From contig NW_015168044.1 of assembly GCF_001447785.1 (NCBI RefSeq), forward strand, positions 2,775,343 through 2,838,665: a stretch of 63,323 nt of DNA, in the 5' to 3' direction. Under the pieces are notes generated by a model. That model saw nothing but the letters and a program-made list of their open reading frames with translations. It searched no databases and was not told the DNA's origin. The position numbers and the translations under genes are program-made. Source of the DNA: Gekko japonicus. Taxonomy: Eukaryota. Numbering within the stretch: the first letter of the stretch is position 1; every line of letters starts with the position of its first letter. This document shows positions 41,472 through 52,749 of this stretch, one piece after another.

Positions 41472-41598
41472 TCAGTCTAAAGCAAGTTTTTTCAGAGCTG
41501 ACGTGGCAGATGCAGCTCCCTTGGACTCTTTCATCTTCTCTAGGGCAAGCAGAAGGTCAAGCTGGGTAAGTGGCCGTAGCTGTTCCTCTTCCAGGTCA
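41472..41598 (-). CDS. atad1a: atad1a-like last coding exon
   Basis: (S)[44 protein letters not shown]; minus-strand AATAAA at 41209-41214. Confidence 0.9.
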
Positions 41599-50500: not shown

Positions 50501-52749
50501 CCCGGCATGGAGGCAGCTTTGAAAGTTTTGGGGCGGGGGGGAAGAGTAAAAAAGACTTTGCCTGACTCCAAAAGGTAATAGAATCAGTGCCAGGGAAATA
50601 GATGTGGGGAGACCACCTACAGTCAAGGTGCCACAACAGAGAAGGCCCTGTTTCTTAGAAAACAACAACCAATATCACTCTAGAAGGTGGGGTTGCATAG
50701 AATGGAACTTCTGATAGTTACTTCAGTATTGATGGGCCTCATGGGAGTAGATAGTCTTTTATAAGCTCTGTTGTTATTATTCCCTCAAGCTCCAGTAAAA
50801 TTGCAGCCACTATGGCAAGCTTTTGGTTCCAGGTCAGGCAGTACTCTGGTTCAAATCTTCTCTGTAAAGGTCACCTGGCACTTTTCAAGACCAGCCTCAC
50901 CCCTCACCCCCAACTTGATACTTTCCTGCCATCACAGAAGGTGGATTACAAAGGATAAGGCAATGCACTAAAAACAGGTGATACCTACAAATAATAAGTG
51001 CAGTGGATTACAATCCTGTTCCATCTAAAACAAAAAAGTGCCCCCTGTTGGTGCCACCACCATTTTCATGCTTCTTTAGGAGTTTTTAAAAGGAGGTAGG
51101 TGAGGGGAAATTGATAAAGATATCTTAGCCACATCAACTAACATTGATATAAGGGGAAATCGTCTAAAATTAATGATTAGATGGCATTATACTCCTGTTA
51201 AATTAGTGTCTCTGAACAATGTTGATGATGCCTTCAGGAGAAAGGCTCGTTCTACCATATAAATGCTCTTCCACCAGGCCAGCTCTTCCACCAGGCCTTC
51301 GACTAGGAGCCACCACCAATAACATCAATTATAGTAGTAACATCAATTAACATTAACTGAACTGGAGAATACGGACTAACTATGCCAGATGCCGATGGGG
51401 GCCATTTTTTGGGAACATCTATCATAGCCACCGGGTTGTTATTGTCTCCAGCACTTAATTTTCATTTTATTCTATTTTATTGTTGAGCTATGCTTGTCAT
51501 GTTTGTGTTTTAATGTGGTTTTAACCCTTATCGTAAACTGCCCTGAGCATGCCTGTGGCGGGGAGGGTGAGATAAAAATTGAATAAAATAAATAAAATAG
51601 TTCTGAGAGAGACCATATATAAAGTGTTAAGTGAAATCATAGCCCACAGAGTGGAACGCTCATCATTTTAAATTTTATTTGGCCAAATGGAGCACTCATT
51701 AGATTAGCTGTATGGTCACAACTTAAGAAATTTGATGGTGGCTGCAAGGTTGCGATTGCAGGTCATTGGAAGCAATAGACGACACCATCTATCGAAATCT
51801 GGCTGAGGAAACATTGGTTAGCTATGGTGATGGAGAAAACTGCAGAGTGTAAGCAATTAAGGGAAGGAAACATAAGTGCAGTCAGTACAAAGATGGTCTC
51901 TGTTCATAAATTATTGGAACAGAATTAAACCTGAAGAACAGACCAAGCTTGTGATTCTTAGTAGTATATGAAGGAATTGTTCAGAGTAAACATGGTAATT
52001 TACTTATTTACTAATTAATTAGATTATAAATTGATTTAAGCTTTTATTAAGAAGGTGATACATGTTGTATTGTATACATTTATACTGTTCAAATGTTTTT
52101 CTTTTCATTTTTGATAGCCACACTTTGTGTGTAGAAGATTGCTATTTGATTTGATTATGTTATTGAGCTTTGTCTTTTTCTCTTTGTAAACTATTGTTAT
52201 TTAACAAAACTAAAAAATAAAAGGAGAAACAGGCAGGGGGCAGTGGAAGAACCAGGAGAAAGACTGATCACTGTCACTGTATGCTGTAGGGGACAGGCTA
52301 TGCTAAAAGCATATATTTTCCTCCAGATTCTGATTATGTGGATGTATTTCTAATAATTAGTCATATGAAGTAGTCTTCACAGCAGGGTAACCTTGATAAA
52401 CATGTGTGACCCTCTTGGGACTCCATACCAGAAGACAAGAGTAAGAGTCCCATAGCACCTTAATACTAACAAAATTTGTAGTCGGTATCAGTTTTCCTGA
52501 ATCAGATGCTCCATAGTTATACAGTAGGTGATTCCATCACCACCACCTCTTTGATGACATAGTCCTCATAGGTACCTTTTTCTTTAGCTGTATCCTTTGC
52601 TTTCGAGTGGGGTCCAGGACATCTGATACCCACTTTATGCTGAAATATGTGGCAGCTCCAAAGACAGTCAGGCGGAGAAGGACAGCAAACACTTCATTTT
52701 GAGTCAGTGGTCGGGTTAGGAGGTCCTTGGAAATTTCCCCTAGCAACAT
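41472..52749 (-). CDS. atad1a: ATAD1/Msp1-family outer-membrane AAA+ dislocase, atad1a-like paralog; 9 coding exons, 1146 nt, 381 aa
   Basis: Exons (minus) 52576-52749, 49747-49845, 49331-49451, 47888-48088, 45837-45943, 44962-45051, 43909-43959, 42928-43103 and 41472-41598 all have GT-AG boundaries and join in frame. N-terminal TM, Walker A GPPGCGKT, pore loop KWYG, Walker B IIFIDEID, and [18 protein letters not shown] are present. Confidence 0.93.
42928..43103 (-). CDS. atad1a: atad1a-like coding exon 8
   Basis: [58 protein letters not shown]. Confidence 0.92.
43909..43959 (-). CDS. atad1a: atad1a-like coding exon 7
   Basis: [20 protein letters not shown] acceptor, GTGAGT donor. Confidence 0.9.
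44962..45051 (-). CDS. atad1a: atad1a-like coding exon 6
   Basis: [33 protein letters not shown] acceptor, GTAAGT donor. Confidence 0.93.
45837..45943 (-). CDS. atad1a: atad1a-like coding exon 5
   Basis: (D)[35 protein letters not shown]; not in the ORF track, read by hand. Confidence 0.93.
47888..48088 (-). CDS. atad1a: atad1a-like coding exon 4 (Walker A and B)
   Basis: (G)[66 protein letters not shown]. Confidence 0.95.
48263..48304 (-). ncRNA. Minimal type-I hammerhead ribozyme motif in a Penelope-derived remnant
   Basis: Minus strand GGUAU CUGAAGA G GUGAG cagtaa CUCAU GAAA GC UC AUACC: 5-bp stem I, intact core, 5-bp stem II, palindromic AGCU in place of stem III. Confidence 0.6.
49331..49451 (-). 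CDS. atad1a: atad1a-like coding exon 3
   Basis: [40 protein letters not shown]. Confidence 0.93.
49747..49845 (-). CDS. atad1a: atad1a-like coding exon 2
   Basis: [36 protein letters not shown] acceptor, GTAAGA donor. Confidence 0.93.
51650..52222 (+). mobile_element. Degraded L1-type 3' end
   Basis: Fragmentary [20 protein letters not shown]...MEK, resembling the L1 ORF2 terminus, then a T-rich UTR and A-rich tail. Confidence 0.55.
52576..52749 (-). CDS. atad1a: atad1a-like coding exon 1 (TM anchor)
   Basis: [58 protein letters not shown]. Confidence 0.93.

Follow-up and report, generated by a model that had tools for sequence, protein, structure and literature searches.

Gene organization of the locus

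The window analyzed here, a stretch of 63,323 nucleotides from the Gekko japonicus genome (contig NW_015168044.1, positions 2,775,343 to 2,838,665 of the forward strand), contains an ATAD1/Msp1 gene of the atad1a type. Six-frame reading and splice-site scans delimited nine coding exons on the minus strand between positions 52749 and 41472 (Table 1); all eight introns follow the GT-AG rule and range in size from 295 to 2730 nt, and the coding sequence of 1146 nt specifies 381 amino acids and a stop codon. Three alternative acceptors were tried for the last exon, and each disrupts the reading frame. The translation is identical at 381/381 positions to the G. japonicus protein annotated by NCBI as "ATAD1-A-like" (database row P0016), which, judging by name and species, presumably corresponds to XP_015269695.1. 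A tblastn search of the window with three query proteins found no second ATAD1 copy.

Table 1. Positions of genes, protein motifs and repeats in the window
Feature	Position	Strand	Remarks
Possible non-coding first exon or promoter	55682..55760	-	CpG-rich patch, GTGAG donor at 55681; limits approximate, inferred
Splice acceptor upstream of coding exon 1	exon starts 52786	-	
Coding exon 1	52576..52749	-	aa 1-58; start codon, N-terminal transmembrane anchor, start of linker helix
Predicted transmembrane anchor	52627..52692	-	about aa 20-41; hydropathy; helix 17-45 in model
Coding exon 2	49747..49845	-	aa 59-91; linker domain
Coding exon 3	49331..49451	-	aa 92-131
Coding exon 4	47888..48088	-	aa 132-198; PF00004
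Walker A GPPGCGKT	48074-48051	-	exon 4
Pore loop 1 KWYG	47978-47967	-	exon 4
Walker B DE	47897-47892	-	exon 4
Coding exon 5	45837..45943	-	aa 199-234; pore loop 2 DHE, WD motif
Coding exon 6	44962..45051	-	aa 235-264; sensor 1, arginine fingers R253/R254; limits match exon skipped in canonical ATAD1 isoforms
Coding exon 7	43909..43959	-	aa 265-281
Coding exon 8	42928..43103	-	aa 282-339; AAA lid domain, PF17862
atad1a-type insert	42936..42983	-	about aa 322-337; motif, then acidic residues; lengthens helix 300-331 in model
Coding exon 9	41472..41598	-	aa 340-381; alpha11 equivalent helix, stop
POLR3D/RPC4 gene	14885..34489	+	start to stop; PF05132, E=3e-16
WWE+PARP gene	39937-40905	+	single ORF; Pfam; WWE part best matches PARP11
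Profilin gene	38186-38629	-	single exon, 147 aa, divergent; Pfam
5S rRNA match	16103-16221	-	weak, 44.8 bits
5S rRNA match	33408-33520	+	weak, 43.7 bits
LINE 3' end	72-599	+	at window end
LINE 3' end	62165-62692	-	at window end
Overlapping ORFs	9803-10892	+	three ORFs; no Pfam match
Tandem duplicate, exact-spaced	9156-9514		about 180 nt, 98%
Tandem duplicate, exact-spaced	28313-28899		about 300 nt, 84%
Tandem duplicate, exact-spaced	29266-29853		294 nt, 97%; may be assembly artefact
Tandem duplicate, exact-spaced	47231-47590		about 100 nt, 95%

The window also includes a complete RPC4 gene, which we take to be POLR3D, presumably located at 8p21.3 in humans; human ATAD1 is assumed to lie at 10q23 beside PTEN. 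POLR3D is the only synteny anchor for 8p21 in the window. A search with 12 short motifs, mostly of PHYHIP and BMP1, yielded no matches, a filtered set of 102 flanking ORFs gave no Pfam match to a further neighbor, and no flanking ohnolog pair occurs within the window. The 8p21-equivalent block named in the original prediction is represented here by POLR3D, with no PHYHIP or BMP1 exon detected.

Two other genes were detected between POLR3D and the atad1a-type gene. The PARP11-like gene stands tail to tail with the latter, 567 nt separating its end from the atad1a stop codon; its one uninterrupted ORF (39901-40905) is intact, encodes 322 aa from the ATG at 39937, and has a possible splice acceptor just upstream. 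PARP11 elsewhere consists of multiple exons, and the gecko gene has the appearance of a retrocopy or of a gene stripped of its introns. The profilin gene, whose nearest solved structures are those of profilin-2 (E 2e-29), may be a paralog of PFN3, which we take to be an intronless gene at 5q35, in a sister block of 8p. As for repeats, the two 5S rRNA matches fall within a shared 250-nt repeat in POLR3D introns and are probably 5S-derived SINEs; the two LINE 3' ends, 95% identical and in opposite orientation, are presumably RTE/BovB-like, and the three overlapping ORFs resemble the disrupted 3' end of a LINE gene encoding reverse transcriptase. Neither a PARP11 row nor a profilin row turned up in the catalog of Hara et al. 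(2018; PMC5901865, Table S10).

Domain architecture and predicted structure

The gecko protein contains a single AAA domain with Walker A and B motifs, sensor 1 and arginine fingers; Pfam places AAA (PF00004, E=5e-22) on exon 4 and AAA_lid_3 (PF17862, E=1e-15) on exon 8. Its best 19-residue hydropathy value in the anchor is 1.78, against 1.85 in canonical ATAD1, and the basic stretch after the predicted anchor has a net charge of +5, against +2. The AlphaFold2 model (mean pLDDT 79, pTM 0.69) retrieved mammalian ATAD1 as the best Foldseek matches (TMt 0.88-0.92), followed by yeast Msp1, and matches in the ESM Atlas carry family-level names only. In this model, the C-terminal alpha11 forms one helix (352-376) with no alpha12, and helices 17-45 and 48-66 are predicted to be an N-terminal transmembrane helix and the start of a linker, the arrangement described for Msp1/ATAD1 (PMC7018516).

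Functional positions were compared using seal ATAD1 as a stand-in for human numbering, with the Walker and sensor positions taken as commonly defined, and 25 of the 27 checked proved identical to canonical ATAD1. The identical set comprises Walker A and B, KWYG, DHE, the WD motif (W224 and D225), sensor 1, the arginine fingers, four of the five buried alpha11 contacts, and S346; the contacts L336, A339, I340, M343, S346 and A349 correspond to L355, A358, L359, M362, S365 and A368 in the gecko protein. The two exceptions are I340, replaced by L359, and R254, a residue that touches alpha11 of the adjacent subunit in the human protein and is T258 in the gecko; outgroups also vary at this position. 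Residue roles were taken from the structural literature (PMC9273213; PMC7018516), which describes a pore loop 1 of K-W-Y-G with two aromatics and a pore loop 2 histidine in ATAD1 (PMC9273213), here K169 W170 Y171 G172 and H210, and a strictly conserved tryptophan in the WD motif of Msp1/ATAD1 (PMC7018516). The nine-exon model, with intact catalytic and pore residues, bears out the original prediction of a complete 381-aa ATPase with all catalytic motifs. All seven motifs that it quoted as characteristic of atad1a are present in the translation, but at least LTVFG is not diagnostic, as it also occurs in paddlefish ATD1B.

Because the catalytic and pore residues are intact, the gecko protein is most likely a membrane-anchored Msp1/ATAD1 extractase, and the matching residues and fold lead us to propose a membrane-anchored ring that would thread and extract mislocalized membrane proteins. 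Mammalian ATAD1/Thorase (PDB 7UPR, 7UPT, 8VXT) shares with it the anchor, pore loops, Walker and WD motifs, arginine fingers, alpha11 and intron positions, at 64% identity (seal ATAD1 versus the gecko protein); the gecko protein differs in being a paralog rather than an ortholog, in its faster-evolving tetrapod lineage, and in being 20 aa longer, with an insert after VRDYV. This insert, which human ATAD1 had been said to lack, is missing from the solved mammalian ATAD1 chains 8vxt and 7upr. Fish atad1a shares the insert and falls in the same clade, with 72-77% identity between the gecko protein and those of ray-finned fish (the zebrafish sequence was not among the compared rows), whereas squamate proteins, 79-94% identical to that of the gecko, carry substitutions of their own, such as KAEF for KAQF.

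Two ATAD1 lineages in vertebrates

Homologs were collected by two protein searches: a full-length search, in which 107 labeled rows were used and 13 dropped from the best 120 of 2707 matches, and a search limited to proteins of 114-364 aa, in which 105 were used and 15 dropped from the best 120 of 671. For the tree, 52 rows were picked by hand (51 of 210 labeled search rows and one beetle protein) and labeled beforehand as type A (atad1a), type B (canonical ATAD1/atad1b) or outgroup; three mis-predicted tails were cut, and a chimeric snake model was excluded. This chimera, Thamnophis sirtalis P0331, joins an atad1a-type N-terminal part to a canonical C-terminal part and is probably an assembly or annotation artifact; Table S10 of Hara et al. 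lists no canonical ATAD1 for this species (PMC5901865). The search rows were assigned to A or B with profiles made from the tree rows of this study, so that the assignment is partly circular.

In the IQ-TREE analysis (LG+C20) of these 52 proteins, which include no lamprey, hagfish, amphioxus, tunicate or canonical shark rows, A and B each formed a clade (support 100/98 and 100/99) and together were separated from the invertebrates at 97/94; after removal of the insert and C-tail (LG+G4), the corresponding values were 99/96, 100/99 and 92/73. Clade A unites squamates, axolotl, coelacanth, ray-finned fish and sawshark, and the gecko protein is nested within squamates, then with axolotl (98/96) and then coelacanth (95/86), the sawshark being basal. 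Each clade roughly tracks the species tree, except that bichir is out of species order (96/89). Grouping of the gecko protein with mammalian ATAD1/atad1b, the outcome that had been named as contrary to the prediction, was not recovered, and forcing squamate A together with all B was rejected by the AU test on the trimmed set (p-AU 0.004). The same test rejected a pairing of squamate A with squamate B (3e-101), of squamate A with teleost A (0.015) or with all ray-finned A (0.024), and of teleost A with teleost B (1.7e-8), the last of which upholds the claim that atad1a is not a teleost-specific duplicate. Placement of the shark outside both bony-vertebrate clades was rejected with all columns (p 0.025) but not without the insert and tail (p 0.144). 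The sawshark protein carries the insert; among the 15 alignment columns that distinguish A from B, it agrees with B or the outgroup in several.

Both types are present, at about 65% identity to each other, in axolotl, Naja naja and Salarias. In five canonical proteins, skipped exons (aa 235-264, 265-281 and 235-281) end exactly on gecko exon limits, and a sixth skip ends near one; with 4 of 8 boundaries comparable, the limits 234/235, 264/265 and 281/282 match exactly and one more approximately, which indicates that the introns are common to both types and that the gecko gene is no retrocopy. Path lengths of A and B are about equal in fish (0.29/0.27), as opposed to 0.86/0.25, 0.80/0.46, 0.64/0.30 and 0.10/0.02 in four snake comparisons, in three of which the A distance is 2-4 times the B distance and in the remaining one 1.7 times. 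As far as protein sequences can date it, the duplication is older than bony vertebrates and probably also older than jawed vertebrates, the shark placement being less firm, and is younger than the split from invertebrates.

Distribution, losses and previous reports

The 107 labeled rows among the best 120 of 2707 full-length matches comprised 20 squamate and 87 ray-finned fish proteins, including those of bichir, sturgeon, gar and bowfin, and all were nearer to the A profile. The 105 labeled rows among the best 120 of 671 length-limited matches comprised 35 A, 62 canonical and 8 invertebrate proteins, and added A-type copies from coelacanth, axolotl and sawshark, which overturned an initial reading that only squamates and ray-finned fish carry the A type. 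Among the matches listed, all 13 mammal, 6 bird and 4 frog rows and the single lungfish row were canonical, and neither A-type nor canonical rows came from turtles or crocodilians. Absence from these best-120 lists is weak evidence, because the alligator copies known from Table S10 are also missing from them. A record labeled as ferret (P0191) in nr could pass for a mammalian A-type copy; it is 99.7% identical to the tilapia protein and was treated as mislabeled.

The gecko gene has been recorded before. Hara et al. (2018; PMC5901865, Table S10, row 92) list the "ATAD1-A-like" group AmnPhylome_0000782_sub_001 as "elusive", with members from two alligators, two geckos, anole, python, garter snake, coelacanth, gar, zebrafish and stickleback, and with zero in human, dog, opossum, chicken, zebra finch, two turtles and Xenopus; columns for a deeper search give 0 birds and 0 mammals, with 68 avian and 112 mammalian gene sets. 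The two alligators contradict a loss from all archelosaurs, which had been considered. The group contains the same name and species as the window-identical protein, and no difference between the two was found. Its non-elusive partner, taken as an early-vertebrate paralog, is ATAD1, represented by a separate G. japonicus protein, XP_015278145.1 (rows 92-93), as predicted for a second ATAD1 in this genome; gar and coelacanth are likewise listed with both types (PMC5901865). ATAD1 appears in the supplementary table and is not named in the main text, where 263 of 469 elusive genes are described as having a paralog thought to stem from the two early genome duplications (PMC5901865).

The atad1a-type gecko gene is real, correctly interpreted and already known, from the 2018 table row and from NCBI annotation. 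The present analysis adds members from shark, salamander, bichir, sturgeon and bowfin, which are not in the table of Hara et al. (2018), together with explicit tests of topology, the finding that introns are shared, and the location and structural annotation of the insert. Sharks, ray-finned fish, coelacanth, salamanders, squamates and crocodilians retain the type, which has been lost from, or was not detected in, mammals, birds, turtles and frogs; the predicted loss in mammals holds but was drawn too narrowly, as it extends to birds, and two turtles and Xenopus tropicalis have no listed copy. Gecko atad1a belongs to a catalog of several hundred paralogs that reptiles retain and that mammals and birds have lost. 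A comparable case is Bmp16, described along with other "cryptic" 2R paralogs (PMC6395752), an early-vertebrate duplicate found in sharks, fish and squamates, with several losses and faster evolution; it belongs to an unrelated family and is gone from all archelosaurs and amphibians, whereas atad1a persists in alligators and axolotl. A full-text literature search, with supplements and most subscription papers outside its range, found no study of atad1a function or of this duplication.

Origin and possible role of the atad1a type

Taken together, we consider it highly probable that the gecko gene is an intact atad1a ortholog, a paralog of ATAD1 produced by a DNA-level duplication in early vertebrates, most likely the second whole-genome duplication (2R), and that it encodes an Msp1-like extractase partly redundant with ATAD1. 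The second genome duplication would have separated an 8p-type block from a 10q-type block. The localization, activity and redundancy of the protein are deduced from its sequence and model: its N-terminal helix may anchor it in the outer mitochondrial membrane, and possibly also in peroxisomes; six subunits would assemble as a spiral ring, in which W170/Y171 and H210 of the pore loops would grip substrates that are mislocalized and tail-anchored or stalled in import; and ATP hydrolysis would draw these out of the bilayer, as in ATAD1/Msp1. Probable partial redundancy with ATAD1 would explain both the repeated loss and the faster evolution in tetrapods.

A role distinct from that of ATAD1 is conceivable but doubtful. 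The insert helix, maintained for more than 400 million years, might dock a cofactor or adaptor, or the basic flank of the anchor might direct the protein to another membrane or substrate set. The insert site is presumably where Vps4 carries its Vta1-binding beta domain. All 21 A rows that extend into the region, from sawshark to gecko, retain the helix motif (truncated in 2), as against 0 of 18 such B rows, and in the AlphaFold2 model the insert prolongs a small-domain helix into a lower-confidence acidic loop; the 15 diagnostic columns and the net charge after the anchor (+3 to +5 in 7/7 A proteins, +2 in 4/4 B proteins) also speak for a distinct role. However, the substrate-gripping residues are unchanged; the loop at the insert site varies in length among invertebrate outgroups, so that B may simply have shortened it; repeated loss suggests a dispensable gene; and the expression of elusive genes tends not to exceed that of their paralogs (PMC5901865). 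Were the role distinct, zebrafish atad1a would be unsuitable as a model of human ATAD1, and a quality-control route would have disappeared separately from mammals, birds, turtles and frogs.

The same orthology and extractase mechanism could be combined with a small-scale (segmental) duplication, or with a date in the first genome duplication or on the bony-vertebrate stem, which we regard as improbable. The single synteny anchor and the shark test without the insert leave room for such an origin, as does the npm2a/npm2b pair of the same block, for which local duplication has been argued (PMC6233590). Against it, the sawshark lies inside clade A in both trees, carries the insert, and is excluded from a position outside both clades when all columns are used; Wotton et al. 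(2008; PMC2446394), whose supplement mentions neither ATAD1 nor POLR3D, place the chromosome 8 and 10 paralogons as sister blocks that arose in the second duplication; and Hara et al. (2018) treat the pair as an early-vertebrate duplication (PMC5901865). That the gene is decaying or unexpressed, as its faster evolution in tetrapods might suggest, is very improbable given its open frame, canonical splice sites and catalytic residues that are invariant across squamates. Readings of the gene as a copy from the teleost genome duplication, as a duplicate or retrocopy confined to lizards, or as a gene transferred horizontally from fish to squamates, which are invited by the a/b naming, by a zebrafish peroxisome inventory that calls Atad1a and Atad1b both orthologous to human ATAD1 (PMC8919083, Table 3), and by the restriction of the best full-length matches to squamates and ray-finned fish, are refuted by the coelacanth, axolotl and sawshark proteins, the AU tests, the eight introns with shared positions, and the double listing of gar and coelacanth (PMC5901865), and retain virtually no probability.

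Zebrafish atad1a continues to be presented as orthologous to human ATAD1 (PMC8919083, Table 3), though only atad1b groups with the human gene, a distinction relevant for the modeling of ATAD1 disease in fish. With its conserved insert, and with no functional study in the literature searched, atad1a offers a natural variant for testing how Msp1/ATAD1 proteins choose their membranes and substrates.
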